32,000 bases of DNA from Alphaproteobacteria bacterium (lineage in GTDB: Bacteria > Pseudomonadota > Alphaproteobacteria > Rs-D84 > CASDRH01). The translations under genes and the position numbers were made by a program. The stretch is from contig JAOASE010000006.1 in assembly GCA_025210155.1 (NCBI GenBank), positions 79,678 through 111,677 on the forward strand. Reading direction: 5' to 3'. Positions 1,789 to 31,064 of the stretch are shown piece by piece. The notes beneath the pieces are model-generated. The model made no database searches. It saw only the letters and a program-made list of their open reading frames with translations, and was not told the origin of the DNA. How positions within the stretch are numbered: position 1 is the first letter of the stretch; each line of letters begins with the position of its first letter.

Positions 1789-1818
1789 TTATACTCTTTC
1801 CATAAATTTAAAAGATAA

Positions 1819-3417
1819 TTAACTATATCTATCGATGAATCCACACCATCTTTCAACTTCTTCAATACTAATAAGACCTCTAAACATCTTTTCAACCGCT
1901 GCTTCTTTCAGGGTTCTTCCGGATAATTCATTGATCCAGTACTTCATAGCTTCTTCATTTTTATTCACTGTCATAAGTTCTAAGAAATATGCATCTGGAA
2001 TAATGATTTCTGAACAAACTGTTCTACCTGTAACACCTTTATAGTCACATTGTTCACAACCATCTCCTTTTAATGAAGTTTGTTGTAAACCTATATCACC
2101 ATAAGCTTTTAATATTCTTTGATAGGCTTTCATTTCTGGATGATCTGCTAGCCTTTTTTTACAATTAGGACACAGTGTCTTGAATAGACGTTGAGCAGTT
2201 AATCCTCTCATAATCTCAGGATCTTTAAGCTTAAATGGCTCTACCCCCATATCCATAAGTCTCAAAATAATCGCTGAACCTGAATTGGCATGGAGTGTAG
2301 TCCAAACGTTGTGACCAGATAAGGCACCCTTAAAGGCTAATTCTGCTGCGGAAAGTGTTCTGACCTCACCAATCATTAATGAATCGGGATCGGATCTAAG
2401 AGAGGCAGCCAAGGCTTTAATGAAAGCCTCTTCTTTTTCTTCTTCGTTTTCTGCATTTGTAACGGGCATCTGTCTCGCACCTGGAATTGGATACTCAGGA
2501 GGATCTTCCACCGTAATTAGATTGATTTCATAATTATTTTCTTTTAAGTACTTAATCATATTTCTTTGAAGAGTTGTAGATTTACCCGAGCCGGTTGGAC
2601 CAGATACAACAACAATACCTGTAGGTGCAGCTCTTAATTCTTGGAACTGTTTATCTTCTAGTTCTGTGAAACCACCAGCTTTTAAATCGTCATTTTTACT
2701 ACTTGTATTGGCATAAAGTAGTCGCATAACTAAATATTGTGAACCAAAGGCTATGGGATTGAACTGTAAACGAATCGCAAGCACGTTACTTGGAAGATAT
2801 AAATCTGTATCACCTTGTATAGGTGTATCCCCTAGTTTCTGACCCGCCTGGAATTCATTTTGAGAATAGTTAGAATCTGATATATCTGCAGATGCAAATA
2901 CTGAACGGACGAATGCCTCTCCCCAGTCTCCACTATACTCTAGAACTGTTTGCATAGTACCATCAACTCTGAAAATAACTGATGTTTCTTTTCCTACTAC
3001 GACGTGGACGTCGGACACGCCTAGCTTTGCTGCTTTAGCGATGATATCAACATAGGCCTTTTGCATTTCATTTTTGAAATTACCTCTTTGTTGATTTTTA
3101 TTATCTATAGTTAGGAAACGAGATTCGTTTTGATATAAAGAAGATAGCAATCTCATACCAAGATAAATAGGATCATGTATCTCATAACCACTTCTTTCCA
3201 TTAAGGATTTGAATGCAAATACTCTACCGTCAAACTTATGTGTTTCTGAAACTACAAATGTACCATCAGAAAATAGGGCCAAAATGTCTTGATGACCTTT
3301 TGCCATTTCTAAATCGGAGAAGTCACTTGTTAATAAGCGATTTTCATCAGCAAATAGTTTCTCTGCTAGATCTTCTTCATTTAGATTTAATAGATCTTCT
3401 TCTTTTATTATAGCCAT
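1819..3417 (-). CDS. pilQ: Type IV pilus assembly ATPase, GspE/PilB family (PilQ of R64-type T4b pili by context)
   Basis: 532 aa. Walker A 'SGPTGSGKSTT', Asp box 'ITVEDPPEYPI', Walker B 'LMIGEVR' and His box 'GHNVWTTLHAN' are all present. A C-terminal tetracysteine motif 'CPNCKK...CEQCDYKG' is also present. Confidence 0.9.
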   Translation of the reverse strand: MAIIKEEDLLNLNEEDLAEKLFADENRLLTSDFSDLEMAKGHQDILALFSDGTFVVSETHKFDGRVFAFKSLMERSGYEIHDPIYLGMRLLSSLYQNESRFLTIDNKNQQRGNFKNEMQKAYVDIIAKAAKLGVSDVHVVVGKETSVIFRVDGTMQTVLEYSGDWGEAFVRSVFASADISDSNYSQNEFQAGQKLGDTPIQGDTDLYLPSNVLAIRLQFNPIAFGSQYLVMRLLYANTSSKNDDLKAGGFTELEDKQFQELRAAPTGIVVVSGPTGSGKSTTLQRNMIKYLKENNYEINLITVEDPPEYPIPGARQMPVTNAENEEEKEEAFIKALAASLRSDPDSLMIGEVRTLSAAELAFKGALSGHNVWTTLHANSGSAIILRLMDMGVEPFKLKDPEIMRGLTAQRLFKTLCPNCKKRLADHPEMKAYQRILKAYGDIGLQQTSLKGDGCEQCDYKGVTGRTVCSEIIIPDAYFLELMTVNKNEEAMKYWINELSGRTLKEAAVEKMFRGLISIEEVERWCGFIDRYS

Positions 3418-3421
3418 TCAT

Positions 3422-4261
3422 TTAACCCATATATAAAGTGTATACTTTTCCAGCTTTTTTGAAAACAACTGATTCATTAGTTATTTTGATAACTTCAAAC
3501 TTATCTACAATGTTTCCTTTTGCAATTTTAGATGTTTTTCCTGATTTAATATTTTTAATTACAGCTATTAATTCACCTTTAATACCCATTATAGAATCTA
3601 TAGCTATTAAATCAGAAATATCCTGCTCTTGCTCCATTTTAACAAAACCTTTTTGATTTAAAGCAAGTTGTTTTTCAGCTTCTTTTTTAGCTTCTTCATT
3701 TTGTCTTCTATCTAAGAAATCTGCCATAAAAGCTATTTCCTCTGGTAAAACACCATTATTTTCTTTTTTAACTAAAAGAGCCAAATCATAATGATCTCCC
3801 TCAGGATCTTCTAAAATAGCATTAATTAAACTATCAATTATCTCCTGCTTTTTAGCCTCGACCCTAGCCTCTTCTTCTTCCTTCAACCTTTGAGCATCCA
3901 TTTCTTTTTGAAGTGCCTCAGCCCTTCTTTTTTCAGTTTCTGCTTCCATTCTTTTCTTTAAAGTTTTTGCTTCTAGCTCTAATCTAGCAGCTTCTTTTTT
4001 AGCCTTTAATTCATCTAAAGAAAGTTGAAGTTTTTCTTGTTCTGATTTTAATTTAATAAGAGCATTTTTTCTTTCAATTTCTGTCATGATAGAGAAAAGA
4101 TCATCTGTTTCTTGGAATTCTCCTCCATCGAAGATGTCTTCTATTAGCATTTCTTCTGCAACAACCTCTGTATCACCATAGTCATCAAAAGTATCTTGTG
4201 AATAAGATATTTTTGCCATAGACAATACCAATAATAATGAAAACAAACTAGTCTTTACCAT
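3422..4261 (-). CDS. Exported coiled-coil protein with small C-terminal beta domain; PilP-like pilus biogenesis protein by position
   Basis: 279 aa. Sec signal 'LFSLLLVLSMAKISYS/QD'. About 75 aa of E/K/R-rich helix ('KEAARLELEAKTLKKRMEAETEKRRAEALQKEMDAQRLKEEEEARVEAKKQE'). The C-terminal 'IKGELIAVIKNIKSGKTSKIAKGNIVDKFEVIKITNESVVFKKAGKVYTLYMG' resembles PilP/GspC-HR type small beta domains. Its start overlaps the upstream gene's stop by 14 nt. Confidence 0.45.
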   Translation of the reverse strand: MVKTSLFSLLLVLSMAKISYSQDTFDDYGDTEVVAEEMLIEDIFDGGEFQETDDLFSIMTEIERKNALIKLKSEQEKLQLSLDELKAKKEAARLELEAKTLKKRMEAETEKRRAEALQKEMDAQRLKEEEEARVEAKKQEIIDSLINAILEDPEGDHYDLALLVKKENNGVLPEEIAFMADFLDRRQNEEAKKEAEKQLALNQKGFVKMEQEQDISDLIAIDSIMGIKGELIAVIKNIKSGKTSKIAKGNIVDKFEVIKITNESVVFKKAGKVYTLYMG

Positions 4262-5720
4262 AGATCTCTCCTTTATATTTCCACTTCTTTCCGTTCATAC
4301 TCCATTCAATTGAAGTAACTACCATTCCTCCAAAACTATCTAGGAACGGAGAAAACGTTGAAAATTTTTCTTTTGATGTAATTTCAAAACTTACAAACTT
4401 ATATGTTTTTTCTTGAATACTTTTACCTTCTCCAAAAGAGAATGTTTTGCTTCCTTGCTTAACAATACTTGATATTTTGTTTTCTTGGAAGAAATCTTTT
4501 AATGACTTTTCAATATATTTAACATTTTCTCTTGGCTCTGAAACTAGTTTTTTAACTTTATCAAATTTTAAAACACCACTAGCTGAACCATTCTTACTAA
4601 CTGTTAAACTCACATCTGAAGGAATATATCCCTCTTCCTGTGCTCTAAATACATACTCTTCTTTGCTAAGACCTCTTTTTCTCCAATCTATTCTAGCTCC
4701 ATCTTTACTACAGCTAATACCGGAGAAACCCCAGCCAGCAAAAGGCAAATAAACGGATTTTAGCGTTGAGAAACAAACCTTATAAATTTCTTCTGGATCA
4801 TAAGCATTTTTCCAAGGCTTTGCTTCGTCTATTTTCTTTTGTATCTTTCTTTTTTCTTCTTCTTCTCTAATCTTTTTTTGCTTTGCTAATCTTTGTCTTT
4901 GCTTAACAACTAATTCTTGAGCTGCCTGTCTTTTGTTCTCCATATATTGATTTTTAAATTTAAACATAGAAAAAACAACCACCATGGATATGAATAAAAA
5001 TATTATAAAGCTATAAGTTTTTTGATCTGATAATGACTTGATTTTTGCTAAAGAAAAATCGTCTATCATTGTTTTTAATTCAGCACCTATATCAGCATCT
5101 GAAACATTCCAAGAAGGAGGCGCAACCTTATATCCCCAATCAGGAACTGATAACATTGTTTCAAAAGCTAACCTAGCTTCTGACTCACTTTTATAAAGAA
5201 TATCCTCTTCTGGTAGAATCATGTCATTTCGAATAACAAGCATCCACCAACCTTCAGGAACTTCAAATACACAAAGAGCGCTACCTTTGTCAGAATATCT
5301 ACTTGCTACAAATGGTGCCGCAGCTGACATTCCTTCTTTATACCCATCCTGAGATGACATAAGACCATATTGAGCGACCCCAACTTCTTTAACGCAATAA
5401 AGATCATATTTGTTATCTTGTAAAACTTTTGAAACAGCTTTTATTTCTTTAAGCTTATTTTCTTCATCGTTAAATGGTTGCCAGAAGATACCAACCGCAT
5501 ATTTTTTTCTATCTACAGTTATGTAACTTTTTGTACTAGCACCAGATCTTTTTGCTTTTTTCACGGGAGCTGTTGGCTTAGCAATTGAAACGTCTTTACT
5601 TTCGCCTTTAGAAGTTTTCTTTTCATCCTTTTCTGCGTTAGACGAGCTTGAAGAGCCACCCTTGTTCTCAGATGGCTTTTGATTTATAAATTCTTTTATT
5701 TTATCTATAAAATTTATCAC
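4248..5720 (-). CDS. Bitopic pilus assembly protein, PilO (R64/PAPI-1 type) -like
   Basis: 490 aa. It has a Ser/Lys-rich N-terminus and a cytoplasmic domain starting 'KKYAVGIFWQPF'. A single TM segment 'YSFIIFLFISMVVVFSMF' is followed by the basic helix 'RQRLAKQKKIREEEEKRKIQKKIDEAK' and then a periplasmic domain. Its position between secretin and PilP-like gene matches pilO in the pilL-N-O-P-Q-R order. Confidence 0.5.
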   Translation of the reverse strand: MINFIDKIKEFINQKPSENKGGSSSSSNAEKDEKKTSKGESKDVSIAKPTAPVKKAKRSGASTKSYITVDRKKYAVGIFWQPFNDEENKLKEIKAVSKVLQDNKYDLYCVKEVGVAQYGLMSSQDGYKEGMSAAAPFVASRYSDKGSALCVFEVPEGWWMLVIRNDMILPEEDILYKSESEARLAFETMLSVPDWGYKVAPPSWNVSDADIGAELKTMIDDFSLAKIKSLSDQKTYSFIIFLFISMVVVFSMFKFKNQYMENKRQAAQELVVKQRQRLAKQKKIREEEEKRKIQKKIDEAKPWKNAYDPEEIYKVCFSTLKSVYLPFAGWGFSGISCSKDGARIDWRKRGLSKEEYVFRAQEEGYIPSDVSLTVSKNGSASGVLKFDKVKKLVSEPRENVKYIEKSLKDFFQENKISSIVKQGSKTFSFGEGKSIQEKTYKFVSFEITSKEKFSTFSPFLDSFGGMVVTSIEWSMNGKKWKYKGEIYGKD

Positions 5721-5743
5721 TCTCTCTCCAATTTTAAATTTTA

Positions 5744-7378
5744 TTATCTTAAGAAACTACCCTCTAGAGCTCTGTTATTAGGATGCAATGGTGAATTTAT
5801 CACTTGTGGAGTAATTAATACAACCAACACATCTCTTTCCACGTTGCTAACCCTTGAACCTCCGGCAGCTATGAAATTAGGATCTCCAAGACCTGTGTTT
5901 GTGTTCTCATTCTTAACTTTTTCAAAGCCCGTAAGAACTACTGTTTGACCAGATCTAAGGACTAATTCTTGAAGGAAACTTCTTTCTTCAATTGTTGGAA
6001 GTTGGATATTTGTGATAGATTGATCATCTTCACAGTCAACCTCTGTAGTACCGTCAGCTGCATAGCAGGTATCGTCGTTTTCTTCACTACCAGTTGATGA
6101 AACAGTATCAAGAGATATTAACTCTGTATAAGAAAGGTTAAACATCATTAACAATCTACCATTATCCAAAATATTTGGAAGCAATTGAATTGAGAAACCC
6201 TCTTCTATTTCATCAGTTTGAACTTCTGTTTCAGAACCACTTTCAGTACTTACAACTTTAATTTCACTAACATACTTATATTTTTTTAAGTTATTAAATG
6301 GAACTACTTTATTATTAATAGTTGTTAAAACAGCACTTGTTAATAGAGATGTTCTTCCCTGCTTTGATATTGCAGCTACTACAGCATCTATATTAGGACT
6401 ATTAACTTTATGACCGTCTCCTGCTTTATCTGTATTTCCTATCATATATTGTATACCAGAACCATTTGAAACTGCACCAGTACCACTAATACCTTTGAAA
6501 TTAAGATCCTTATGAAGCAATTGGAAATTAATCCCCATAGAGTCTCCATCATTTAAAGACACTTGCATAATTTTAACAGCGACAACAACTTGTCTAGAAA
6601 ATCTTTCATTTTGAATTCTAATGAACTGACCTATTTTTTTGATAACATCTGGAGATGAAGTAACAGATATTGTACCTGTTGATTTCGAAATTGTTATAGA
6701 ACTCTTATCATCTTCTTCTGTTTTAATAATATCGTTAAGACCTTGCTCAACCTCAGTCCAAGCATCAAAAGTTGAAGAAGAAGAAACTGAGCCTCCCCCA
6801 CTAGATGCAGATACTGACGTGCTGAAATCTGATGATGTTGATAAAGCATATAACGCAAATATTTTTGTCTTTCTTTTATAAAGTACTATTTCGTTACCTG
6901 TATATTCCCAATAGACACCTATTTCGTTTGAAATAAGATTTAATAGACCACTTAAAGAACCTGTATAAGAAAGTTGAAAATTTTCACCTTTTAAACTCTC
7001 GTCAACAGAGTCCAACCTAACTTTTAAACCTGTAAGATAATATAACTTATTAGCAAATGAAAATATATCTAATTCCTCTTTAGAAGAGAATGTTATTCCA
7101 TAATCCCCCTCTAACTCTTTAGGAAGAGGTTTTCCAGAAGACAAGATAACACTTTCATCACCTAAGAAAAGCTCATCAGTTTCAGAAACTGTATCAACCT
7201 CTATTGCCTCACTAGGAAGCTTAGACTCTTCAATCCTTTCTTTTATCTCTTCAAAAGAATGATCCACGTTTTCCATGATATGCTCTTTAACTTTTTCACC
7301 ATAACAACCTGTCAAAGAAACAGAAGCCAATAAAAGTATTGCTAATAACTTTACCCTACTAATTTTAACCATTATCAT
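5744..7378 (-). CDS. pilN: Lipoprotein secretin of type IVb pilus class (PilN/BfpB-like)
   Basis: 544 aa. Lipoprotein signal 'LLLASVSLTGC' (lipobox LTGC). Secretin-type C-terminus 'GQTVVLTGFEKVKNENTNTGLGDPNFIAAGGSRVSNVERDVLVVLITPQVI'. Upstream beta-rich N-domains are present. Its start overlaps the pilL-like stop by 14 nt. Confidence 0.8.
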   Translation of the reverse strand: MIMVKISRVKLLAILLLASVSLTGCYGEKVKEHIMENVDHSFEEIKERIEESKLPSEAIEVDTVSETDELFLGDESVILSSGKPLPKELEGDYGITFSSKEELDIFSFANKLYYLTGLKVRLDSVDESLKGENFQLSYTGSLSGLLNLISNEIGVYWEYTGNEIVLYKRKTKIFALYALSTSSDFSTSVSASSGGGSVSSSSTFDAWTEVEQGLNDIIKTEEDDKSSITISKSTGTISVTSSPDVIKKIGQFIRIQNERFSRQVVVAVKIMQVSLNDGDSMGINFQLLHKDLNFKGISGTGAVSNGSGIQYMIGNTDKAGDGHKVNSPNIDAVVAAISKQGRTSLLTSAVLTTINNKVVPFNNLKKYKYVSEIKVVSTESGSETEVQTDEIEEGFSIQLLPNILDNGRLLMMFNLSYTELISLDTVSSTGSEENDDTCYAADGTTEVDCEDDQSITNIQLPTIEERSFLQELVLRSGQTVVLTGFEKVKNENTNTGLGDPNFIAAGGSRVSNVERDVLVVLITPQVINSPLHPNNRALEGSFLR

Positions 7379-8102
7379 CTCCCAATGTTTTTATAACTAA
7401 AACCTTATTCCCCAAATAGAATTTTGCATATGGAGGTGGAAAAGCTTTTGAAAAGCTTTTTATTAAAGCAGATGTAACATCCTTATACCTACCTCTAAAT
7501 ATAGCTGACGCCCTTAAAGGATATTCTCTATCCGTTTGCCACAAAATCTCCCAACCAGTTTCCTCTGACCACTCTTCAAGAACCTCCCTTAAAGTAAGAC
7601 CTTCTTTTGCAACCCAATTTTGAATTTGAGTTTCATAATTAACCATTTCTTGAGTTTCATCACCTTCAGCCTCTACAACCTCAACCTCAGGATTTATATA
7701 ACCTTTTATATGATCGAATTTATTGCCTTGATCCCCACCAAAAGGAGATGAAACAGATAAAACTCTCATACCATCATCTTCAGCCATTTCATTATTTCCT
7801 AATGGCATAGCAGCTCCCTTAGAAGTTGCTTTATCAGAGAATACCGACGCTGGAAGCTCTGAAACTAAATCTGCCCCACCTGAAAAAGAGCCCAAATCTA
7901 TACCAGCTGGGATTACCGATTTTTCTGCTGTACCGAAATTTTCATTAAAAGAACTCATTTGAACGTCTGCAGTATTAATTTCTGCCCAACTGGGAGCATT
8001 AACTACACTACCAGATTCTGCAAACGAATAATCCGCCCTTGACGGCGTGGCCATTAAAACTACTAATAAGCTTAAGGCTTTTTTAATATTTGATAAACTC
8101 AT
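7365..8102 (-). CDS. pilL: Exported TcpQ/PilL-domain pilus biogenesis protein
   Basis: 245 aa. Sec signal 'LSLLVVLMATPSRA/DY' with no lipobox Cys. The C-terminal 'WVAKEGLTLREVLEEWSEETGWEILWQTDREYPLRASAIFRGRYKDVTSALIKSF...NKVLVIKT' fits the TcpQ/PilL domain pattern. It is the first gene of the operon, directly upstream of the secretin. Confidence 0.65.
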   Translation of the reverse strand: MSLSNIKKALSLLVVLMATPSRADYSFAESGSVVNAPSWAEINTADVQMSSFNENFGTAEKSVIPAGIDLGSFSGGADLVSELPASVFSDKATSKGAAMPLGNNEMAEDDGMRVLSVSSPFGGDQGNKFDHIKGYINPEVEVVEAEGDETQEMVNYETQIQNWVAKEGLTLREVLEEWSEETGWEILWQTDREYPLRASAIFRGRYKDVTSALIKSFSKAFPPPYAKFYLGNKVLVIKTLGDDNG

Positions 8103-15287: not shown

Positions 15288-16037
15288 ATGAAAAACAAGA
15301 TAAATTCACACTTTAAGATTGTTGTTACTATATGTACAGCCTGCGCTACTATGGTGTTTTTAAAGTTTGCCTTAGCTCAAAGCGAAACTCAAAAATCTAT
15401 CTACAGAGAAGAAACTAAAATATCTGAGGAGATAGATAATTATGAAGCTATGGAAGAAAAATATAAGCTGGAAATAGAAAAAAAGCAGAAAATAATTAAT
15501 ACTGCTCAAAGCAAAATGAAAAAGCTTAGAACTGATATATTTGAAACAGTTCAAGAAATTCACATAATCAAACAAAATGTTAGAGAGCTTTTCAATAGTA
15601 AGAAAAATACATACGAAGGACTAACTACTTTATCAGCTATAAATAGTAAAATTATACCTGAAGTACTTATATCTCCTGTAGGATATCAAAAGGAAGGCAC
15701 TATAGTTACTGAAAATGGAATTAAAAAGAATGTTGTTAGACCTTGGGGACAAGTCGCTATAAATAGATTTGGCGGACTTATTAGCGTTGACTCTGTAGGA
15801 GACAATTTCAAACATAAATATTTTAGAATAACGTATTCTGGATTACCTAACTATATATGTGAGGCCTTAATTTTATCTCGTTGGGAAGACAGCTATATTG
15901 GTAGCGCATGGGTTGGTGTTAATGGACATTACTTTTCTTGGGAAGAAGAATTTCAAGAAAACAGCTTGCCTATAAATCAACAAAAAGCCAAGGAAATTTG
16001 CAGAGGTGGTGGATACTTCCAAATAGGATTTGAATAG
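15288..16037 (+). CDS. Hypothetical exported or membrane-anchored protein: N-terminal hydrophobic segment, long charged helix, C-terminal type IVb-pilin-like two-Cys domain
   Basis: 249 aa. The N-terminal hydrophobic segment is 'FKIVVTICTACATMVFLKFALA'. A coiled-coil-like region covers roughly aa 35-105. The C-terminal 'KYFRITYSGLPNYICEALILS...KEICRGGGYFQIGFE' has Cys191 and Cys238. An in-frame upstream TGA at 15264 fixes the N-terminus. Confidence 0.6.
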   Translation: MKNKINSHFKIVVTICTACATMVFLKFALAQSETQKSIYREETKISEEIDNYEAMEEKYKLEIEKKQKIINTAQSKMKKLRTDIFETVQEIHIIKQNVRELFNSKKNTYEGLTTLSAINSKIIPEVLISPVGYQKEGTIVTENGIKKNVVRPWGQVAINRFGGLISVDSVGDNFKHKYFRITYSGLPNYICEALILSRWEDSYIGSAWVGVNGHYFSWEEEFQENSLPINQQKAKEICRGGGYFQIGFE

Positions 16038-19677: not shown

Positions 19678-19989
19678 ATGAAATTCAAAAAATTGATTTT
19701 ATCAATGTTTGTTGCAATAATATTTTTGAATATTAGCAATAGACCTGCTCGTTCAGATTATGAAGAAGAAAAAGAAATAGCGAATGGAATTGCTTCTATA
19801 TTTTTACAAACTGAAGATCCAGATGAAATTGAATTCGGCAGAGAAAAAATATCTCCTAGAGGTGGAAAATTTCAACTTAATGTTAATAAATCATTATGGG
19901 ATGAACCAGACTCTGAACTTAAATTAGAATATATTCAAAATGAAGATAGGGAAAATGAAAAGCCTCATGTTGATTTAAACTGGGAATAA
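19678..19989 (+). CDS. Hypothetical small exported acidic protein
   Basis: 103 aa. Signal-like 'LILSMFVAIIFLNISNRPARS/DY'. A strong RBS AAGGAGG lies 6 nt upstream, and a TGaTATAAT extended -10-like element lies about 40 nt upstream. No recognisable family. Confidence 0.55.
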   Translation: MKFKKLILSMFVAIIFLNISNRPARSDYEEEKEIANGIASIFLQTEDPDEIEFGREKISPRGGKFQLNVNKSLWDEPDSELKLEYIQNEDRENEKPHVDLNWE

Positions 19990-19994
19990 ATTAT

Positions 19995-20462
19995 TTATTC
20001 ACAACCATTCTGTTTTGCTAATTTAAATTTCGTTAATCTATTTCTTAATTCTTGAGTATTCGACTTTGAAATTATCAGTTTATATGAATTACAAAACTCA
20101 GAATTGTTATAGCTATATTTTATTGATGCTTGATTTGAATTTTCTGTTATAAAATTATTTAAATGTTTTTTATAATACTTCCCATATAAACTTTTATACA
20201 TATTTATTAGCTTAATATCTTGGGATTTAAAGAAGTTTTCAAAAAAGGTTATATATACCAACTCTTCTTTTGAAAAATCACAATTTCTTATAGCAAATAG
20301 TAAATTATCCTTCAGAACCCTTGTCTTAATCAACTCTTCTTCTGATGAAGTTAGACAATGAATTTCTGAAGCAGATGAAACAGAATAAAAAAATAAATTT
20401 AAAGGAATAATTATTAAAGAAATTTTCTTATAAATTAATTTACTTAAAATCATCTTATACAT
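19995..20462 (-). CDS. Hypothetical exported four-Cys protein
   Basis: 155 aa. Signal-like 'ISLIIIPLNLFFYSVSSASE'. There are 4 Cys in the mature part. RBS GGAGGGG lies upstream of the ATG. No recognisable family. Confidence 0.55.
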   Translation of the reverse strand: MYKMILSKLIYKKISLIIIPLNLFFYSVSSASEIHCLTSSEEELIKTRVLKDNLLFAIRNCDFSKEELVYITFFENFFKSQDIKLINMYKSLYGKYYKKHLNNFITENSNQASIKYSYNNSEFCNSYKLIISKSNTQELRNRLTKFKLAKQNGCE

Positions 20463-20596: not shown

Positions 20597-21160
20597 ATGA
20601 AAATGGATGCTGGAAGACTTAACAAAGGCAATATCATAGAATTTGAAGGTGCTCAATACTCTGTGTTGAAAACTTATACTATAAAACCTGGTAAAGGTGG
20701 TGCATTTATTCAAGTGGAAATGAGAAATGTTAAAACTGGAATAAAAAAAGAAACTAGATTTAGAACTAACGAAAGTGTTGAAAAACTTATGAATGAAAGT
20801 AAGCAATGTCAATACCTATTCTCTGAAGGGGATGATCTAGTCTTAATGGACAACAACACTTATGAACAATTTAATCTAGCTAAAGATGTTTTAGGAGGCT
20901 CACTTCCTTTATTAGAAGATGGTATGCAAGTTCATGTTCAATTCATTGAAGGAAATCCAATTGGTATTGAACTACCTAAATCTGTTGTTTGTGAAATTGA
21001 GGAAACAGAAGCTGTTGTTAAAGGTCAAACTGCTGCCAGTTCAAACAAACCTGCTACATTGACTAATGGATTGAGAGTTATGGTCCCTCCATTTATTGAT
21101 GCTGGTGAAAAGATTGTTGTTAATACTGAAGATCTTACTTATATAGAAAGAGCTAAGTAA
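20597..21160 (+). CDS. efp: Translation elongation factor P
   Basis: 187 aa from the ATG at 20597, with RBS AGAGGTG upstream. The loop 'KPGKGGAFIQVEMRN' carries the conserved Lys. Three OB/KOW-like domains are apparent. The track ORF start at 20552 is an over-extension. Confidence 0.95.
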   Translation: MKMDAGRLNKGNIIEFEGAQYSVLKTYTIKPGKGGAFIQVEMRNVKTGIKKETRFRTNESVEKLMNESKQCQYLFSEGDDLVLMDNNTYEQFNLAKDVLGGSLPLLEDGMQVHVQFIEGNPIGIELPKSVVCEIEETEAVVKGQTAASSNKPATLTNGLRVMVPPFIDAGEKIVVNTEDLTYIERAK

Positions 21161-21189: not shown

Positions 21190-21216
21190 AACCTCCCAAT
21201 TGGGAGGTTATTTTTA
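21190..21216. terminator. Bidirectional rho-independent terminator between convergent efp and the 468-aa gene
   Basis: Perfect palindrome ACCTCCCAATTGGGAGGT (21191-21208). It is flanked by an A-rich run upstream and TATTTTTATTT downstream. Confidence 0.75.
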
Positions 21217-21217
21217 T

Positions 21218-22624
21218 TTAATCCTTCTTTGCTTCTCTCTTTATTTCCACATATCTATTAGATGGATTGTTTTTTTCAGATATATATATTTCTTTATCTA
21301 ATTTTATATCTTTATTTGATGAATTATTATTTACAACATCTATTGCTGCCTGAGCTCTATCGTTTGCTAATTTCTGATTATTAGGAGTTTTTCCACCATC
21401 AGCAGCTCCCGTTATAATATAATAACCCGAAGGAAGATTTTGTAAATTTGTTAAATTCATATCTCCAGCCTTAATTTTTGTAGCTCCTGAAGCGAAATGG
21501 ATTTTTATAAACTGACCAACCTTCATTTCCGACACTGATTTTGGGGAGCCACTTCCCATCTCTTCAACGTTAAATTTATAATTTTCTATTTCTTCAAGAG
21601 AATAGTTAACGATTGTTTTTCCCATAGTTTTATCAACACTGAATTTGCCTAGTTTATTATCATCTTCGATTCCCCATTTTTTAAACTTTTCTTTAACAGC
21701 TTCCGTTGGATTGGATTTTTCTGTCTGGATTGATTTCTCTTTTCCAATAGTTAATCCATTAGATTTTAATTTGTCAGAAATCTCTTTACCTTCTTTTGAT
21801 AGAGTTTGTTCTTTTGAAGTTGAAATTTCAAATTTCCCCTTATATTTTCCATCTTTAGATTCATATAAAACCTTTCCATCTTTTTCTATTAATGGAGTTT
21901 TTGGTTCAGGACATAACTTTCTTAAATATCTGGCTACCCAATAAACATTCCCATCTTTCGATGTTGTCCATTTCTTATCGACAGGACTATGTGGGTCTTT
22001 AGCATTAAGCCTATAAGATAGAACTCCTGAACCTCCAGCTGCTAATAAATCTTCACACGTTTTAGGTTCTTCAGTTTTAGCTTCTAACCCCTCTTGCCCT
22101 ATAGCTAGCTTACAGGCTGTTTTGTGTTGTAACCAATATCTACCTTTTTTCTTACACTTAACTAAATTAACAGACTTCATGCCCCTCATTGCCTTATTAG
22201 ACTCTCCAGTAGTAACTATAACACCTGTACCTACTGCAGTTAGAGCTGTTGCTGCTATAGTGACACCCTTATTATTTTTATATTTCTTTTCTGCTCTACC
22301 TAACTTTCTACTATAATTTTCATATTGAGATTTCAGGAATGCTAAATCCGAAGAAATTTCTTCATTATCATTATTTAACTTTGTTGAAATGTACTCTAAA
22401 TCTTTTTGATCAGATCTCTCGCATTCATCATCGTAAGAATTTACAAACGCAGATAATTCACTTAATCTTGATATATGATCCTCAATTTCGTCTTTACTAC
22501 TAGCAGAGGAAATATCTCCATTCTCACTTAGAATGGAATTAAAATTGCTTCTTGTTACTTCTGCTAATGCAAATGTTTGTAAAGAAAAAATGCAGCTTAT
22601 TGTTGTTAATATTATTTTTTTCAT
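21218..22624 (-). CDS. Exported protein: coiled coil, Ala/Thr/Gly-rich hydrophobic segment, Lys-rich middle, OmpA-like peptidoglycan-binding C-terminal domain
   Basis: 468 aa. Signal 'ILTTISCIFSLQTFALA/EV'. The hydrophobic segment 'GVTIAATALTAVGTGVIVTTG' spans aa 120-140. The C-terminal 'IHFASGATKI...YYIITGAADGGKTPNNQKLANDRAQAAIDVV...NRYVEIK' follows the OmpA_C pattern (F.f.s.a.l ... i.GhtD..G....N..LS..RA.aV ... NRRVEI). RBS AAAGGAAG lies upstream. Confidence 0.7.
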   Translation of the reverse strand: MKKIILTTISCIFSLQTFALAEVTRSNFNSILSENGDISSASSKDEIEDHISRLSELSAFVNSYDDECERSDQKDLEYISTKLNNDNEEISSDLAFLKSQYENYSRKLGRAEKKYKNNKGVTIAATALTAVGTGVIVTTGESNKAMRGMKSVNLVKCKKKGRYWLQHKTACKLAIGQEGLEAKTEEPKTCEDLLAAGGSGVLSYRLNAKDPHSPVDKKWTTSKDGNVYWVARYLRKLCPEPKTPLIEKDGKVLYESKDGKYKGKFEISTSKEQTLSKEGKEISDKLKSNGLTIGKEKSIQTEKSNPTEAVKEKFKKWGIEDDNKLGKFSVDKTMGKTIVNYSLEEIENYKFNVEEMGSGSPKSVSEMKVGQFIKIHFASGATKIKAGDMNLTNLQNLPSGYYIITGAADGGKTPNNQKLANDRAQAAIDVVNNNSSNKDIKLDKEIYISEKNNPSNRYVEIKREAKKD

Positions 22625-22651
22625 TATCTATCTTCCTTTAACGAATATAAA

Positions 22652-23872
22652 TTATATTGGGTAATCCATATTAAGATCTTTCATTAATTCTTCTTCGAAC
22701 TGTTGATTTTGTTCGAATATATCTTTATCTAAATTTTTAGAGTTATCTTTACTTGTTTCTTCCTTAGACTTTCTTTTACCTGAAAATAGTCCTTTTTTCT
22801 CCTTAGGATCTTTTACTTTTGAAGTTTTCTCTTTTTTCTCTTCTGGAGCTTTAGTCTTTTGAGAAGCTTTTGAAGTCTTAGAAGACTTATTAGTATACTT
22901 CTTTTTACACATAGTTTGAAGCATTGAAGATGTTACATCTTTTCCATTCCATTTAGAAAGAATGCCATTTTCATCCCATTCTGCATGAGCTGTGCTTAAT
23001 AATCTATCACATTTAGGTTTCTTCTTATTTCTATAATCTGAGCTACATAAACATTTTTTAATTGCAATATTTTTTGTTACTGAAATTGTTGCCCAAGTAG
23101 TTGCTGCTACAGCAGTAGTTCCAGAAATTATAGCTGTAGCTTGCATAGTTTTTGCTTTTTTATCCATGTCTTTGTAATCTTTTTTCACATCTGCAACTTC
23201 TTTTTTATACCAAAGAATTTCTTGAAGATTTGAAATAGTGTTATTAATAGACATTAAAGCTTCTGACCTTTGATCTGTGCAGTAAAAAACTTCTGCCGCC
23301 TCTTTACATATATGCTCTTCTTCTGAAAATACAAAATTCACGCCACAAGAACATTGTCCGTTAATCCAAGTTCCTGCTCCATTAGCTTCACATAAAGCCT
23401 GTCTTGTTTGACATTTACTTGAAGGGATAACATCGCTCCATACTAAACCAACGTTAACACAAGCTTCTTCTGTTCCACAATATATTGGAGTTTCCGCAGA
23501 ACAAACATGCTCTGTATCTTCTTGTTCTACACCATTAACGTTCTTTGGAAAACACATTCCATAGATAGTTTTACCCTGTGGATTAACCCATTCTGTAATA
23601 GTTTCCGTTGGATTACTTGAGTCGTTTGGATTTGTCTTTGTCCACTTTGTTTGCCAAAGACCACCTTGAGCCTCACAATCTTGCTGAGTATAACAGTAAA
23701 GAAGTGCATCTCCACAACCCATTTGTTTTTTCTCAACCTCATTGGTGAAAACATTTGTTGCAGAAACTCTACTTCTTGCGTAAGAGTTTGTTCTTTTACC
23801 TCTAGAATAAGATGTGCTTGCCATAGATAGCAACATCATTACAGATAATGATACATATAAAACTTTTTTCAT
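22652..23872 (-). CDS. Exported Cys-rich protein, paralogous in its central module to the adjacent 468-aa protein; Lys-rich tail with acidic C-terminus
   Basis: 406 aa from the ATG at 23872 (MKKVLYVSLSVMMLLSMASTSYS...), with RBS GAAGGGA upstream. The track ORF starts 29 codons earlier. The protein has 17 Cys. The motif C-x-T-x3-C-x3-G-x2-W occurs twice exactly, plus a third degenerate variant. The hydrophobic segment is 'QATAIISGTTAVAATTWATISVT'. The C-terminal tail reads 'KTSKASQKTKAPEEKKEKTSKVKDPKEKKGLFSGKRKSKEE...EEELMKDLNMDYPI'. Confidence 0.7.
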   Translation of the reverse strand: MKKVLYVSLSVMMLLSMASTSYSRGKRTNSYARSRVSATNVFTNEVEKKQMGCGDALLYCYTQQDCEAQGGLWQTKWTKTNPNDSSNPTETITEWVNPQGKTIYGMCFPKNVNGVEQEDTEHVCSAETPIYCGTEEACVNVGLVWSDVIPSSKCQTRQALCEANGAGTWINGQCSCGVNFVFSEEEHICKEAAEVFYCTDQRSEALMSINNTISNLQEILWYKKEVADVKKDYKDMDKKAKTMQATAIISGTTAVAATTWATISVTKNIAIKKCLCSSDYRNKKKPKCDRLLSTAHAEWDENGILSKWNGKDVTSSMLQTMCKKKYTNKSSKTSKASQKTKAPEEKKEKTSKVKDPKEKKGLFSGKRKSKEETSKDNSKNLDKDIFEQNQQFEEELMKDLNMDYPI

Positions 23873-23961
23873 TTCTAAATATCCCTTCTTATAAGAATGA
23901 TATATTTTAACATATTTTTCAATACCTTGCAAATAATTTAAACAACTGAGATTTAACAAAT

Positions 23962-23990
23962 AAAAAACCCCTCAAATTAGAGGGGATTTT
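23962..23990 (-). terminator. Rho-independent terminator downstream of rplY
   Basis: CCCCTC (23968-23973) pairs with GAGGGG (23980-23985) around a 6-nt loop. On the minus strand the stem is followed by a T-run (complement of the A-run at 23962-23967). Confidence 0.75.
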
Positions 23991-24009: not shown

Positions 24010-24639
24010 TTATTCTGCTGAAGCTTCTTCAGTAGCTTCTGCTGCTGGAGCTTCTTCAGCTGGAGCTTCTTCAGCGATCGGAGCTGAAATTGTAGCAACA
24101 GTGAATTTGTCAGCACTTGAAAGTTTAACACCTGCAGGAAGTTTAATATCTCCACAGTGAAGACTTTCTGCAACGTTAAGGTCTTTAATGTCAACAACGA
24201 TTTCTGAAGGTATTTTAGATGCAGCACATACTACTTCCAATTCTCTTCTAACGATGTTTAATACACCACCAGCTTTAACGCCTGCACAAGTGTCAGCATT
24301 TTCGAATTTAACTGGAACCGCAATCTTAACTTCTTTGTTTAAGTCGATTCTTAAGAAGTCAACGTGCATTGGAGCATCTGTTGTTTTTCCAAATTGGATG
24401 TCGTGACAGAATGCTAATTCTTTTTCCCCGCCTTCTACTTCGATTTCGAATTGCCTAGTTTTAAAACCTGGAACTTTCCATTCTTTTTCTAGATCTCTTG
24501 GGTCCATTTGAATCAATACTGGAGCTTTTTTGTTTCCATAGATTACACCTGGAAGCATTTTGTTAGCTCTAATAGATTTAACGATCCCCTTACCGCCATT
24601 TTCTCTAGCTTGTACTTTTAATGTTGATTTATTTGCCAT
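24010..24639 (-). CDS. rplY: 50S ribosomal protein L25 (Ctc-type, long form) with Ala/Glu-rich C-terminal tail
   Basis: 209 aa from the ATG at 24639 (MANKSTLKVQARENGGKG...), with RBS AAGGAA upstream. 'LPGVIYG' and a two-domain Ctc-type architecture are present. The tail reads 'APIAEEAPAEEAPAAEATEEASAE'. Confidence 0.9.
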   Translation of the reverse strand: MANKSTLKVQARENGGKGIVKSIRANKMLPGVIYGNKKAPVLIQMDPRDLEKEWKVPGFKTRQFEIEVEGGEKELAFCHDIQFGKTTDAPMHVDFLRIDLNKEVKIAVPVKFENADTCAGVKAGGVLNIVRRELEVVCAASKIPSEIVVDIKDLNVAESLHCGDIKLPAGVKLSSADKFTVATISAPIAEEAPAEEAPAAEATEEASAE

Positions 24640-26930: not shown

Positions 26931-27836
26931 ATGGGCAATAAAAAGGATAATATCAAAAAAGATAAATATCAAGAAACCCCTATATATCCAACAGAATTTC
27001 ACACGAGAACCTTTCCTCAAAGAGTTTATATTTGGATTATAGAGAGGTTTGTTTCTATTGCCTGCATACTTGTTCTTTTGTCTGCAATTCAAGCTATTTA
27101 TATATTTGCCAAAATCAGCACAGTTGAAAAGTCTAACATATATTTTGTATATTGGGATGAATATGAAAATAGATTTAAAGAAAAAGAATTTATTGATGAA
27201 TTCCATAAAAACGAAGTGAAAATACCTATATATCAAATAACCGCTCAAGAAACTTTAGAAAAGGCTGTTGTTGATAGATATCAAATATCATCCAATGAAA
27301 TAAATAATGAAAAAAAATGGTGCGGGTGTGAAAAAGAAATATTAGATAGAAAAAAAGCAGCTATATTTACTGATGACTGTTTTATATGTAGACATTCATC
27401 AAATAATGAATGGACAATATTCTCGAATGGCATTCTTCAGGAAAACTTAGAAATATTTAACTCTGGAAAAACTAGAAAAGTTGTTTTATTAGAAACAAAT
27501 ATTCTGAATAGTTATGATGCGTATCTTAGACCTAAAGAAACATTTTTTAATAAAATTGCTACGGAGGCTATGAATTTCTTTAATGTTACCAAAAAGAAAG
27601 AAGAATTTCTTGCTCAATATATTATGGAAGTCAAATTTGCATTGATACAATATGATAAAAATGGGAAAAAAGAATGGGCGGAGATATTATCCTCAATAGC
27701 CCAGATAACTTCTAGAAGTAAGGATTATGGAGACAGAGTTTATGGATTCGTAATAGATGAGCTAGATACTAATTTTGTACCTCAAAAAGAGATGTACTTT
27801 AAAAAATATTTAGAGGAGTTAAGAAATTATGAATAA
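26931..27836 (+). CDS. Bitopic inner-membrane protein, VirB8/DotI-fold-like paralog 1 (most divergent)
   Basis: 301 aa from the ATG at 26931, with RBS AAAGGAA upstream; the track start at 26877 overlaps the lipoprotein gene. It has a short basic N-terminus and the TM segment 'VYIWIIERFVSIACILVLLSAIQAIYIFA'. The periplasmic domain has an alpha1-like helix 'QETLEKAVVDRYQISSNE'. A CGC...CFIC four-Cys cluster is present. The C-terminal 'RVYGFVIDEL' parallels the NPLGF motif of paralog 3. Confidence 0.45.
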   Translation: MGNKKDNIKKDKYQETPIYPTEFHTRTFPQRVYIWIIERFVSIACILVLLSAIQAIYIFAKISTVEKSNIYFVYWDEYENRFKEKEFIDEFHKNEVKIPIYQITAQETLEKAVVDRYQISSNEINNEKKWCGCEKEILDRKKAAIFTDDCFICRHSSNNEWTIFSNGILQENLEIFNSGKTRKVVLLETNILNSYDAYLRPKETFFNKIATEAMNFFNVTKKKEEFLAQYIMEVKFALIQYDKNGKKEWAEILSSIAQITSRSKDYGDRVYGFVIDELDTNFVPQKEMYFKKYLEELRNYE

Positions 27837-28656
27837 AGCTCCTGAATTTAAATTGATATCTTTCATTGTTGTTATAGTAGCCCTTATAATGATGCTGTTG
27901 AATTCTGTATTGACTATATTTATTTTTGATATGACAAAAGGGTTTCAAACTGGTGACTTAAAAAGCCTATCAATAACTGGATTAAAAACCAAGGAAGCAA
28001 TAATACCTAAAGAAATTGAAATATATTCATCTTCTGAAAATATGTTCAATGCCATACCTATGTCCAACAACATATCTCAAGAGAAGAAAACTCAATTTAT
28101 CCAAAAGCTTATAAAACAATATCTTATAACTAGATATACAATAAATGGAAATCAATTCTTAATGAATAAGAACATGGGGGAGATGCATCTCAAGCATAAA
28201 AAAGGATGTCCTAGAAAACTTGTCAGTCCTATTTATATGTGGAGCATGACATTTTCTGATGCTGGAGAAAGAAAATATCCTTCCGTTTTAGGTAGCGGAG
28301 CTAAAGATGATGCATCTCAAGCCTGGATAGAATTTCTTGAAAAAGAAGTTCCAGACATAAAATCTAAAATGAATGCTGGAATAACTAGATCTGTTGAAAT
28401 ACTTCAAGTTCCATATAAAGACGGAGATTGGTGGAAAACAAAAATTAGATTGATATATAGAAATGATATAGAATTTACTAGAGAAGTTTACGAAGATTTC
28501 AATATATCTATGGAAGTTATTTTTGCACCAAAAGATAAGAAATTACTAAAAAAAGAACACTATCCATTTAGGCTAGCAAACCTTGCGGAAAGCTTTGGAG
28601 ATCCTTATATTATGTTTGGATTTCATGTAATACAACTAGTTAAAGAAAAAGAATAA
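27829..28656 (+). CDS. Bitopic inner-membrane protein, VirB8/DotI-fold-like paralog 2
   Basis: 275 aa. Its start overlaps the upstream stop by 8 nt (ATGAATAA). The TM segment is 'LISFIVVIVALIMMLLNSVLTIFIF'. The alpha1-like helix is 'TQFIQKLIKQYLITRYTINGN'. The beta region reads 'ITRSVEILQVPYKDGDWWKTKIRLIYRN'. The C-terminal motif is 'GDPYIMFGFHVIQL'. Confidence 0.5.
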   Translation: MNKAPEFKLISFIVVIVALIMMLLNSVLTIFIFDMTKGFQTGDLKSLSITGLKTKEAIIPKEIEIYSSSENMFNAIPMSNNISQEKKTQFIQKLIKQYLITRYTINGNQFLMNKNMGEMHLKHKKGCPRKLVSPIYMWSMTFSDAGERKYPSVLGSGAKDDASQAWIEFLEKEVPDIKSKMNAGITRSVEILQVPYKDGDWWKTKIRLIYRNDIEFTREVYEDFNISMEVIFAPKDKKLLKKEHYPFRLANLAESFGDPYIMFGFHVIQLVKEKE

Positions 28657-29543: not shown

Positions 29544-31064
29544 ATGAAAAAGATCTTTTTATTTTTAGGAGCTTTAAATCTTTGCTTATTTTCTGGAAAT
29601 AGCAAATCTTTTGCTGAGGGAGAATATACAAATTCTGGATTTGGTACTCAAACTGCATGGAGCAACCCAGAACAAAATATTGGTGAAGGACAAATTAAAC
29701 CTGGATATGCCAGAATAGATTGGGAACCAGGAAAAGTTATGCCTGTTAGATTGAGAGATGGTATGATAACTCTTATAAATCTACCTACTTGGGAAAAGAT
29801 TGAAGATGCATATATTGGAGATAAGGACTTCTTCGATGGTAGAGCTGTGGAAAAAAATACCTTCATGATATCTCCTGTTGATGGAAGATCAGTGGCTGAT
29901 ACAAATATGGTTCTATTTGGTAAATCTGGTAATAAATATGTCTTCTATCTTAAATCAGAACCAATTAATACTGGAACTATAACTAATTCTGAAATCGAGA
30001 TTATAGTTCCTAATTCTTACAAAGGTAAAAAATCCGTTATTGGAGGAGCTTCTTCTAGTGCTGGTAAATCAAATTTAACTTCTCTATTTGCTAAATCAGC
30101 ATCTGGATCTGCCGGTGATGAAGCTTGGGAAGGTGAAGATTTTGGTTGGATTAAAAATATACCTGTTGACCCATCTCAATTTAGATTCGATATGGATATA
30201 TTTGTTCCAAATCCTGATGATTATGTAATCGCACCTGAAAGAGTTTGGAGAGATAAAATCTTTACTTACATTGATTTTGGTGAAAAAGCTTTACACATGA
30301 ACCAAAGACCAGCTGTTTCAATACTTGTTGAAGGTGGTGAAGCGCCTGTTGGATTTAGAACTGAAGGACCTCTTTCTAGATTAATAGTTGTTGAAGCTAT
30401 TGGTGACTTTGTTCTTAGATCTGGTCAAAGAATTGTATGTATTAAGAAAAGATCTAAGCCGTTCTTAGCTTCTGCTCCAACAATAAATAGTAACTTTACT
30501 CTACCTCAATCAGTAAAGAACTTAGCTAATGGTAATTATACAAATATTCAAACACAATCTGCTGTTTCGCAAGAAGTTAACAATGGACAAGCTGGCTTTG
30601 GGTTCTTCAATCCAAATTCAATGCCTGCCATAAATAATGTGACCTCTCAACAAAGCAATTTCCAAACATCTTCTAGTTATACTCAAGTAAACTATGATGA
30701 AGAGTACAGAAGAAATGATGCAAGAACAAATGGATCTTATCTGCCAGATCATTACGTTCCTTTAGTTGAGCAAAAGACTGTTTCTTACGCTGTTGAAATT
30801 AAAAAAGGCGATTCAATAAAAGAATTAGAAAAATCTTGGGAAGCAATGTCTGCTGGAAAAGGAAATATGCTTTCTAGATACCAAGATAGAGTTTTCTATT
30901 CTCTTGAAGACGAAGGCGTTGATGAGTTAGGTTCTAATCTATACCATGGAAATGAAGTTTATAGATTAAGAATTGGACCATTTGAAGAAATTGATGAACC
31001 AGATGAACTTTGTAAAAAACTTTCTGGATTTAGAATTAATTGTAAAGTTGTTAGAATTCAATAA
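29544..31064 (+). CDS. virB9: VirB9/TrbG/CagX-family T4SS outer-membrane core protein fused to a Q/N/S-rich linker and a C-terminal SPOR domain
   Basis: 506 aa. Signal 'FLFLGALNLCLFSGNSKSFA/EG'. The VirB9 N-domain pattern is 'GKVMPVRLRDGMITLINLPTWEKIEDAYIGDKDFFDGRAVEKNTFMISPVDGRSVADTNMVLFGKSGNKYVFYLKSE'. The VirB9 C-domain pattern is 'APERVWRDKIFTYIDFGEKALHMNQRPAVSILVEGGEAPVGFRTEGPLSRLIVVEAIGDFVLRSGQRIVCIKKR'. The low-complexity linker spans about aa 304-412. The SPOR-like end is 'YAVEIKKGDSIKELEKSWEAMS...EVYRLRIGPFEEIDEPDELCKKLSGFRINCKVVRIQ'. Confidence 0.8.
   Translation: MKKIFLFLGALNLCLFSGNSKSFAEGEYTNSGFGTQTAWSNPEQNIGEGQIKPGYARIDWEPGKVMPVRLRDGMITLINLPTWEKIEDAYIGDKDFFDGRAVEKNTFMISPVDGRSVADTNMVLFGKSGNKYVFYLKSEPINTGTITNSEIEIIVPNSYKGKKSVIGGASSSAGKSNLTSLFAKSASGSAGDEAWEGEDFGWIKNIPVDPSQFRFDMDIFVPNPDDYVIAPERVWRDKIFTYIDFGEKALHMNQRPAVSILVEGGEAPVGFRTEGPLSRLIVVEAIGDFVLRSGQRIVCIKKRSKPFLASAPTINSNFTLPQSVKNLANGNYTNIQTQSAVSQEVNNGQAGFGFFNPNSMPAINNVTSQQSNFQTSSSYTQVNYDEEYRRNDARTNGSYLPDHYVPLVEQKTVSYAVEIKKGDSIKELEKSWEAMSAGKGNMLSRYQDRVFYSLEDEGVDELGSNLYHGNEVYRLRIGPFEEIDEPDELCKKLSGFRINCKVVRIQ

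Follow-up and report, generated by a model that had tools for sequence, protein, structure and literature searches.

A tandem pair of orphan exported proteins with a common helix and apolar-segment module in an alphaproteobacterium: a possible paired envelope stalk

The SNARE motif is a heptad repeat of about 60 residues with 16 layers and a central ionic Q/R layer; SNARE proteins face the cytosol, have no cleavable signal peptide and are held by a transmembrane (TM) tail anchor at the extreme C-terminus. Chlamydial Inc proteins carry a bilobed hydrophobic domain of about 40-60 aa, formed by two TM helices and a short loop, and are delivered by type III secretion. OmpA-like peptidoglycan (PG)-binding domains have a beta-alpha-beta-alpha-beta-beta fold. 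Features that recall each of these systems are found in two adjacent genes, here called B and A, in a 32,000-nucleotide stretch of DNA from an Alphaproteobacteria bacterium (contig JAOASE010000006.1, positions 79,678 to 111,677; this whole stretch is called the window). A sequence-only reading of the window had described a tandem exported pair in which domains that differ between the two proteins flank a shared module; this is borne out by the open reading frames (ORFs) and the leaders, and the operon signals show that the pair is co-transcribed. Our tentative reading is that A and B form a disulfide-linked heterodimer which would serve as an envelope anchor or stalk and present variable domains; this is possible rather than probable.

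Gene B (22652-23872, minus strand) encodes 406 aa counted from its ATG: a Sec leader, a 12-Cys N-terminal domain, the shared module and a K/S/T/E-rich tail. Gene A (21218-22624, minus strand) encodes 468 aa: a Sec leader, a helical N-terminal region, the shared module, a K/E/S-rich linker and a degenerate OmpA-like end. Both ORFs are intact and have rplY (24010-24639) and efp (20597-21160) as neighbours; the DNA of the window is low in GC (about 31%). The ORF coordinates and peptides quoted in the sequence-only reading are all present in the sequence. The Sec signals it had assigned to both proteins are recognisable by inspection as MKK, hydrophobic and small-residue leaders. In B the signal peptide comprises residues 1-23 (23804-23872, minus strand; MKKVLYVSLSVMMLLSMASTSYS), with a hydropathy (KD19) peak of 1.47 at residues 4-22; in A it comprises residues 1-21 (22562-22624, minus strand; KD19 1.60) and ends at an ALA/EV cleavage-type site. 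A was rejected as a lipoprotein since the leader Cys at position 11 is not found in its orthologue.

One other organism has the pair. In this sister species (Logan contig L001, SRR13663708) the gene order is rpsA, rplY, B', A', a 152-aa ORF and efp, and the stop codon of B' overlaps the start of A'. Identical copies of the pair from the window are present on independent assemblies.

The module has the same order of elements in A and B: a Cys, an amphipathic helix of about 45 aa, a Lys collar, an uncharged segment of about 20 aa rich in Ala, Thr, Gly, Val and Ile, a second basic stretch and the motif KC-x5-Y-x4-K-x2-C. The copy in B (22997-23281, minus strand; residues 198-292) comprises C198, the helix, the collar KKDYKDMDKKAK, the apolar segment and KKCLC..Y..K..C. 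The copy in A (22100-22435, minus strand; residues 64-175) comprises C68, an amphipathic helix at residues 73-115, the collar KKYKNNK, the apolar segment and KCKKKGRYWLQHKTAC. At their widest the helices span about 43-48 aa (A 69-116, B 199-243). Their hydrophobic periodicity is 3.5 residues in B (p=0.019) and 3.6 in A (p=0.005), with overall p=0.005-0.03 against shuffles. When the four modules (A and B with their orthologues A' and B') are aligned with MAFFT, 19 columns are invariant, among them the three Cys, KK.YK, T-A, TT, KC, Y, K and C. A C-x13-C spacing is common to A and B, with Y and K in register; in B' the KC-x5-Y-x4-K-x2-C motif contains a 3-residue insertion.

The apolar segments, rich in Ala, Thr and Gly and in A also in Val, lie at residues 245-265 of B (23078-23140, minus strand) and residues 120-140 of A (22205-22267, minus strand). 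Their hydropathy (KD19) is 1.69 in A, 1.75 in A', 1.29 in B and 1.33 in B', and their summed Hessa dG is about +2 kcal/mol in A and +3.1 to +3.5 kcal/mol in B; the B segment falls short of usual TM values. A further 328 residues follow the segment in A and 141 in B. A Thr-rich uncharged 20-mer with basic flanks was found in 5/4717 ORFs, and four of the five are A, A', B and B'; this filter, which required no fewer than 12 small residues and five Thr in an uncharged stretch of 20 with basic flanks, was set post hoc. The common architecture of the two modules appears both real and unusual.

Comparison with the sister species shows how the two genes evolve. B shares 68% identity with its orthologue (P0003) over residues 1-331; A shares 64% with P0001, and this is confined to residues 1-196. 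The housekeeping neighbours of both organisms share 81-94%. By the Nei-Gojobori method, omega is 0.175 in B, 0.18 in A and 0.06-0.08 in the housekeeping genes; coding dS is about 1.3. Within the module, omega per segment is 0.08-0.17, and in the 20-40 residues downstream of it omega is 0.5-0.9; past these residues, the tails of A and A' and those of B and B' cannot be aligned. The module is under purifying selection. Since omega is about 0.18, synteny is kept, module omega is low and the tails are unalignable, A and B are genuine protein-coding genes whose core is constrained and whose tails can be replaced.

The tail of A has been exchanged as a whole. In the window the tail consists of the K/E/S-rich linker and the OmpA-like end (21218-22035); in A' it consists of about 400 aa of K/E/S-rich helical sequence (L001 6485-7678). 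The A' tail has a weak PHROG match to 'tail protein' (E=6e-6), which is probably compositional. The tail of B (residues 327-385; 22718-22894, minus strand) is a low-complexity stretch rich in Lys, Ser, Glu and Thr that is missing from B'. The Lys/Ser/Thr/Glu-rich stretches attributed to both proteins by the sequence-only reading are present, in A at residues 245-335 (K 23%) and in B at residues 327-385 (K 32%, S 15%).

The N-terminal domain of B (residues 51-197; 23282-23722, minus strand), which the same reading had called Cys-rich, contains 12 conserved Cys of the 17 in the whole protein. It carries repeated C-x5-6-C-x3-5-G-x-W motifs (CYTQQDCEAQGGLW, CGTEEACVNVGLVW, CQTRQALCEANGAGTW). In the AlphaFold2 (AF2) model of B, residues 140-190 are the only part above pLDDT 60 (63-75). 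No family was detected for this domain in Pfam-type domain scans, and a PDB sequence search with it gave nothing meaningful.

The C-terminus of A contains a degenerate OmpA-like PG-binding motif (21230-21532, minus strand), which reads ITGAADGG...NQKLANDRAQAA...NRYVEI. The best-ranking Pfam family here is PF00691 (OmpA), whose match takes in positions 33-68 of the 98 in the profile, with the GxxD...NxxLxxxRA core; the OmpA-like assignment made from the sequence alone stands to this extent, but the match is sub-threshold (E=0.012; 16.3 bits on the fragment against a gathering score of 27.2, and 13.7 bits on the whole protein). By inspection, GAAD and NDRA are at the expected spacing inside the aligned core, and both the Asp and the Arg are present. 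In OmpA, these two residues contact the PG stem peptide (PMC6572160). The AF2 model of the A C-terminal region, with pLDDT below 50, has the elements E372-377, H391-396, E401-405, H414-433 and E457-463, in beta-alpha-beta-alpha-beta order. Foldseek returned four OmpA-like PDB domains for A (6ikj_B, 7rjj_A, 2lca and 6top_A) at a non-significant E=1-3. A pairwise BLASTP of the A C-terminus with one OmpA-like domain of locus L036 was not significant; this comparison was given no weight, as the copy of the L036 sequence that was used had a guessed C-terminal end. An OmpA-like domain is a somewhat likely assignment for the A C-terminus.

Searches of large sequence collections indicate that the pair is an orphan family known from two species. 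A module profile built from the four sequences was run by hmmsearch exhaustively against 1.84 billion cluster representatives; the sole matches were P0003 and P0001, which stand for the clusters of B and A. Because the collection includes the organism's own proteins and the profile matched only these two clusters, there appears to be no third paralogue among the 1.84 billion representatives, including those from the pair's own genome. Scans of Pfam, NCBIfam and PHROGs with full proteins and isolated domains gave nothing above cut-offs. K-mer-indexed searches with A, B and the A C-terminal domain returned only the proteins themselves and the one sister species; the search with A was saturated by low-complexity words, and the sequence that stands for its 90% cluster is a 42-aa fragment. 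No relatives of the pair turned up in scans of GTDB, JGI metagenomes and IMG/VR, and no GTDB representative encodes B. A tblastn search with A and B found nothing in 80 loci fetched with ribosomal protein S1, and PDB sequence searches with the A C-terminal domain and the B N-terminal domain gave nothing meaningful. AF2 models from two-sequence alignments have a pLDDT of 41.8 for B and 36.7 for A and are unusable; Foldseek searches of the PDB with these low-confidence models gave no match at E<0.001. The sequence-only reading had recognised no family in the pair, in agreement with Pfam, NCBIfam, PHROGs, PDB sequence and Foldseek searches, all of them without a match above threshold.

Ribosomal protein S1 of this organism is at most about 51% identical to any genome from a pattern-limited scan (Ca. 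Enterousia and other alpha- and gammaproteobacterial metagenome-assembled genomes). The lineage appears to be without a close sequenced relative except for the one SRA-derived contig. The proteins of the window are found in NCBI and IMG on a contig of 1,048,500 bp, and the genome may thus be a small one of about 1 Mb.

In the stalk reading, B and A would be lineage-specific, co-transcribed, Sec-exported cell-envelope proteins, and the module of about 100 aa would be their common pairing and anchoring stalk. The amphipathic helices of A and B would pair with each other, and the single unpaired Cys at the helix start (C68 in A, C198 in B) would form an interchain disulfide. The weakly hydrophobic small-residue segments would pack together; they would either be buried in the bundle or lie in a leaflet of an extracytoplasmic membrane. 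The module would bear variable, fast-evolving payloads: the 12-Cys N-terminal domain in B, and the linker and degenerate OmpA-like end in A. In the sister species, the payload of A' would be the long K/E/S-rich helical tail.

This reading draws on the distribution of Cys residues. The number on the N-side of the apolar segment is odd (1 in A, 13 in B) and the number on the C-side is even (2 in A', 4 in A, 4 in B and 4 in B'); one C-side Cys lies in the motif CK.KY and is conserved within an otherwise 41%-identical stretch. An A-B interchain disulfide is suggested by the one unpaired Cys that each protein has at the aligned helix-start position. This parity fits disulfides N-terminal as well as C-terminal of the segment, and with the PG-binding end predicted for A it favours a location of the whole chain outside the cytoplasm. 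The segment of B is too polar (KD 1.29, dG +3.5) for a likely stop-transfer role. The stalk reading is also supported by the retention of both genes as a syntenic pair in the only other organism that has them, by their single transcription unit, by the purifying selection on the module, by its rare architecture with aligned Cys and motif positions, and by the amphipathic periodicity of the helices. The top-ranking, though sub-threshold, OmpA match of the A C-terminus, with its Asp and Arg, counts in the same direction.

A number of observations weigh against the stalk reading. The AF2 models give it no structural support, and residue-level homology between A and B is marginal. The OmpA-like end of A is below the Pfam gathering score, is missing from orthologue A' and is undetected by phmmer against the PDB. 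The Cys-parity argument is based on only two independent families. The A helix is about 10-12 residues longer than that of B, so that the apolar segments would be out of register in an N-terminally stapled parallel dimer. Finally, the apolar segment of A reaches the usual TM hydropathy threshold (KD 1.69-1.75), the sub-threshold matches of the modules to SLATT and to SctB and YopD fall on TM-containing regions of these families, and B has a net charge of +6 after the segment against +1 before it, which fits the positive-inside rule for a type I inner-membrane protein. These last points are taken up below.

The common origin of A and B is a separate question. The sequence-only reading held that the two proteins align over a central module. 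The order of elements, the three Cys columns and KC-x5-Y-x4-K-x2-C support this, but the residue-level statistics are marginal, with a BLASTP E of 5 for A against B and an hhalign E of 0.024 (probability 2%). Shuffling divides in the same way. The Smith-Waterman score of 78 is reached by 1/500 global shuffles but by 25/500 local shuffles of 20 residues, and a profile-profile comparison, using two-sequence profiles built from the orthologue pairs, gives 0/400 with global column shuffles, 1/400 with 20-column blocks and 11/400 with 10-column blocks. The similarity is therefore far above global composition, but shuffles that keep local composition leave it marginal. In a background of 4717 ORFs, A is the second of the 4713 non-self ORFs in the ranking by the B-module HMM (E=0.2); the A-module HMM does not retrieve B from the same ORFs.

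Two explanations can be considered. A and B are probably very old tandem duplicates, although paralogy is only plausible and is unproven; since the genes are adjacent, tandem duplication is the most economical explanation. Alternatively, the two proteins are non-homologous, the module is convergent or compositional, and the adjacency is coincidental amid orphan exported genes; this concerns the origin of the pair and not its function. The marginal residue-level statistics, the local shuffles and the failure of the A-module HMM would all be expected in this case, and between rplY and priA there are several further exported ORFs that are unrelated and evolve fast. Against it stand the global and 20-column shuffles and the rank of A in the B-module search; the three aligned Cys with the same C-x13-C spacing and with Y and K in register; the near-uniqueness of the Thr-rich uncharged segment with basic flanks to A, A', B and B' among the 4717 ORFs; and the fact that the genes are adjacent, co-transcribed and retained together. 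Non-homology is on balance unlikely, though it carries more weight than the alternatives on topology.

The first of these concerns the inner membrane. If A and B were type I bitopic inner-membrane proteins, the leader would be cleaved, the apolar segment would act as a stop-transfer sequence, the N-terminal parts would be periplasmic and the basic tails cytoplasmic. The hydropathy of the A segment, at the classical TM threshold, fits such a protein, and the tails are variable and of low complexity. The C-side flank next to the apolar segment is strongly basic (+7/-1 in both A and B), and in B it exceeds the N-side in positive charge; in A, by contrast, the flanks are symmetrically basic (+7/+7), which counts against this topology. 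The sub-threshold HMM matches also fall on helix-plus-TM regions. For the A module this is the beginning of SLATT, with a score of 16 bits. The B module matches YopD (PF05844) at E=0.0029, with 17.2 bits against a cut-off of 25, and the NCBIfam SctB model (NF038055) at E=0.0008-0.004, with 16.8-18.9 bits against 37; the TM segment of YopD comprises residues 128-149 (PMC4433470). The likeness in these matches is to a helix that runs into a membrane segment; it is no sign of family membership. A type I topology is further opposed by the weak hydrophobicity of the B segment (KD 1.29-1.33, dG +3.1 to +3.5), by the even number of conserved Cys on the C-side in all four proteins, and by the putative PG-binding OmpA-like end, which would lie on the wrong side of the membrane. 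We consider this topology unlikely.

The weakest alternative is that the proteins are secreted and insert into host or prey membranes as a translocator, pore-former or fusogen with a SNARE/IncA-type or YopD-like latent helix; it would suit the weak likeness of the B module to the TM region of minor type III secretion system (T3SS) translocators (the YopD and SctB profiles), a segment weakly hydrophobic enough to pass Sec without arrest, evolution that is fast relative to housekeeping genes, and the type IV secretion system (T4SS) and type IVb pilus genes nearby, but it is improbable because all profile matches are below curated cut-offs, the leaders are Sec leaders and not T3SS or T4SS delivery signals, the window has no T3SS genes, the single internal 20-aa segment is neither a bilobed Inc domain nor a tail anchor, a SNARE motif would need a longer helix, the putative PG-binding end argues for retention in the envelope, and there is no operon link to the T4SS. 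A more specific version of the stalk, in which the module would be a new alpha-helical outer-membrane anchor, is a long shot: the Lys-flanked Ala/Thr/Gly-rich helices of an A-B pair, too polar to be arrested in the inner membrane, would span the outer membrane, a disulfide-stapled coiled-coil stalk would show the Cys-rich head of B outside, and the OmpA-like end of A would be tied to PG inside, giving a tether or adhesin stalk with neither a beta-barrel nor a lipid anchor.

The pair lies between efp and rplY with its own terminators, as the sequence-only reading had placed it, and a promoter-like site is present as well. A terminator-like hairpin 3' of rplY (23968-23985, minus strand), kept in L001 with compensatory-looking changes, probably insulates the pair against upstream transcription. 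Upstream of B is a promoter-like site (23904-23933, minus strand) with a -35 box TTGCAA, a 17-nt spacer and an extended -10 box TG-T-TAAAAT, matching at 9/12 positions plus the TG extension. The ribosome-binding site (RBS) of B, AAGAAGGGA (23882-23890, minus strand), is 9 nt before the ATG and is kept in L001. The gap from the B stop to the A ATG is 27 nt; it contains the RBS of A, AAAGGAAG, 8 nt before the A ATG, and no terminator-like hairpin was seen between the genes. A bidirectional terminator-like hairpin (21190-21209) is common to A (minus strand) and efp (plus strand). Because a promoter-like site and an RBS precede B, the 27-nt gap carries an RBS and hairpins are found outside only, B and A are predicted to form a single two-gene transcription unit with its own promoter and terminators.

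One database starts B at the TTG at 23959 (435 aa). This start was rejected: the -10 box and the RBS would lie inside the extension, and there is an upstream indel between the conserved DNA block and the rplY terminator. The ATG at 23872 is favoured because its RBS AAGAAGGGA is conserved in L001; the apparent protein conservation upstream of it is best explained by a promoter and 5' UTR that are conserved as DNA. In the stretch that begins with the -35 box and ends at the B start codon (23870-23936, minus strand, compared with L001 about 4770-4835), about 62/67 nt are identical between the species. Against synonymous sites that are near-saturated in the coding region (dS about 1.3), this promoter and 5' UTR are unusually constrained. 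The stretch may carry more than a promoter and an RBS.

Small exported ORFs are found elsewhere in this region. Small exported ORFs that evolve fast are concentrated in the rplY-priA interval. At 19678-20462, orf155 has 58% and orf103 39% identity between the species, where housekeeping genes have 81-94%. Between A' and efp, the sister species carries a further exported ORF of 152 aa with Cys (L001 7694-8152) that the window does not have.

Two envelope-spanning machines are encoded within the 32 kb. Firstly, there is a type IVb-pilus-like cluster (691-8102, minus strand) with a TcpQ-like protein, a secretin, PAP_PilO, an ORF of unknown function, a T2SSE ATPase and a T2SSF platform protein; a separate PilS_N-type pilin gene (15288-16037, plus strand) lies 7 kb from it. 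Secondly, there are VirB8, VirB9 and VirB10 genes. The T4SS-linked genes start 3 kb from the pair, the distance given in the sequence-only reading, and VirB8 lies at 4.8 kb; the pair is separated from these genes by rpsA and rplY. Directly upstream of VirB8 are two family-less ORFs (26931-27836 and 27829-28656, plus strand; 301 and 275 aa) that are 76-85% conserved in the sister species. The C-terminus of the VirB9/CagX homologue (29544-31064, plus strand) is SPOR-like at a sub-threshold level (E=8.9e-4, 20 bits against 21).

At present, the pair is mainly of practical use for marking the lineage and as an object for structure determination. If pairing and anchoring are true, the module would be a previously undescribed way to hold variable exported domains in the envelope of a bacterium with a small genome, and A and B would be candidate surface antigens or host-contact factors of a lineage that carries a T4SS and a type IVb pilus. 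The pair has a distinctive sequence signature; it has no bearing on SNARE-like fusion biology.

A SNARE- or IncA-like fusogenic topology was the analogy first proposed for the module. A and B do resemble these proteins in having an amphipathic heptad-type helix beside a basic linker and an apolar segment. In contrast to SNAREs, the helices are about 43-48 aa long, the apolar segment is internal and the proteins have cleavable Sec leaders. In contrast to IncA, each protein has, besides its leader, a single hydropathy peak of about 20 aa. With Cys on both sides of the segment as well, and no SNARE or IncA profile among the Pfam matches listed at E<=10 for isolated module fragments, the analogy fails.

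Other comparisons are with pore-forming and translocator proteins. The ClyA-family bipartite alpha-pore-forming toxins (XaxAB/YaxAB) are presumably similar in having adjacent, weakly similar genes for proteins of about 350-470 aa, long helices and one apolar small-residue segment. They differ in that the helical module is only about 100 aa in A and B, B has a Cys-rich, beta-containing N-terminal domain, and A has a linker and an OmpA-like end; beta-rich N- and C-regions are predicted, and neither Pfam, NCBIfam nor Foldseek with the low-confidence models gave a ClyA-family match for A or B. SctB and YopD share with the pair a single central, weakly hydrophobic Ala/Thr/Gly-rich helix between amphipathic or coiled-coil helices, and residues 227-271 of B fall on the TM-containing region of the profile. 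The match is short and compositional, however; B has a Sec leader and 17 Cys, and there are no T3SS or chaperone genes nearby.

The remaining comparison is with OmpA, Pal, MotB, YfiB and PorE. A ends in ...YYIITGAADGGKTPNNQKLANDRAQAA...NRYVEIK, with PF00691 as its top Pfam match, and its non-significant Foldseek matches include YfiB, the K. pneumoniae OmpA PG-binding domain, Rv0899-C and PorE-C. Unlike OmpA and Pal, A has an N-terminal part that is neither a beta-barrel nor a lipid anchor, and its end has no PDB sequence match. A shares with them an order of N-terminal anchor, flexible linker and C-terminal wall-binding domain, the last being putative in A. This anchor-linker-wall-binding logic of OmpA and Pal is the closest functional analogy of the pair. 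The family itself is new, but it is most like a familiar type, that of exported envelope proteins specific to one lineage, here with one member possibly tethered to the wall.

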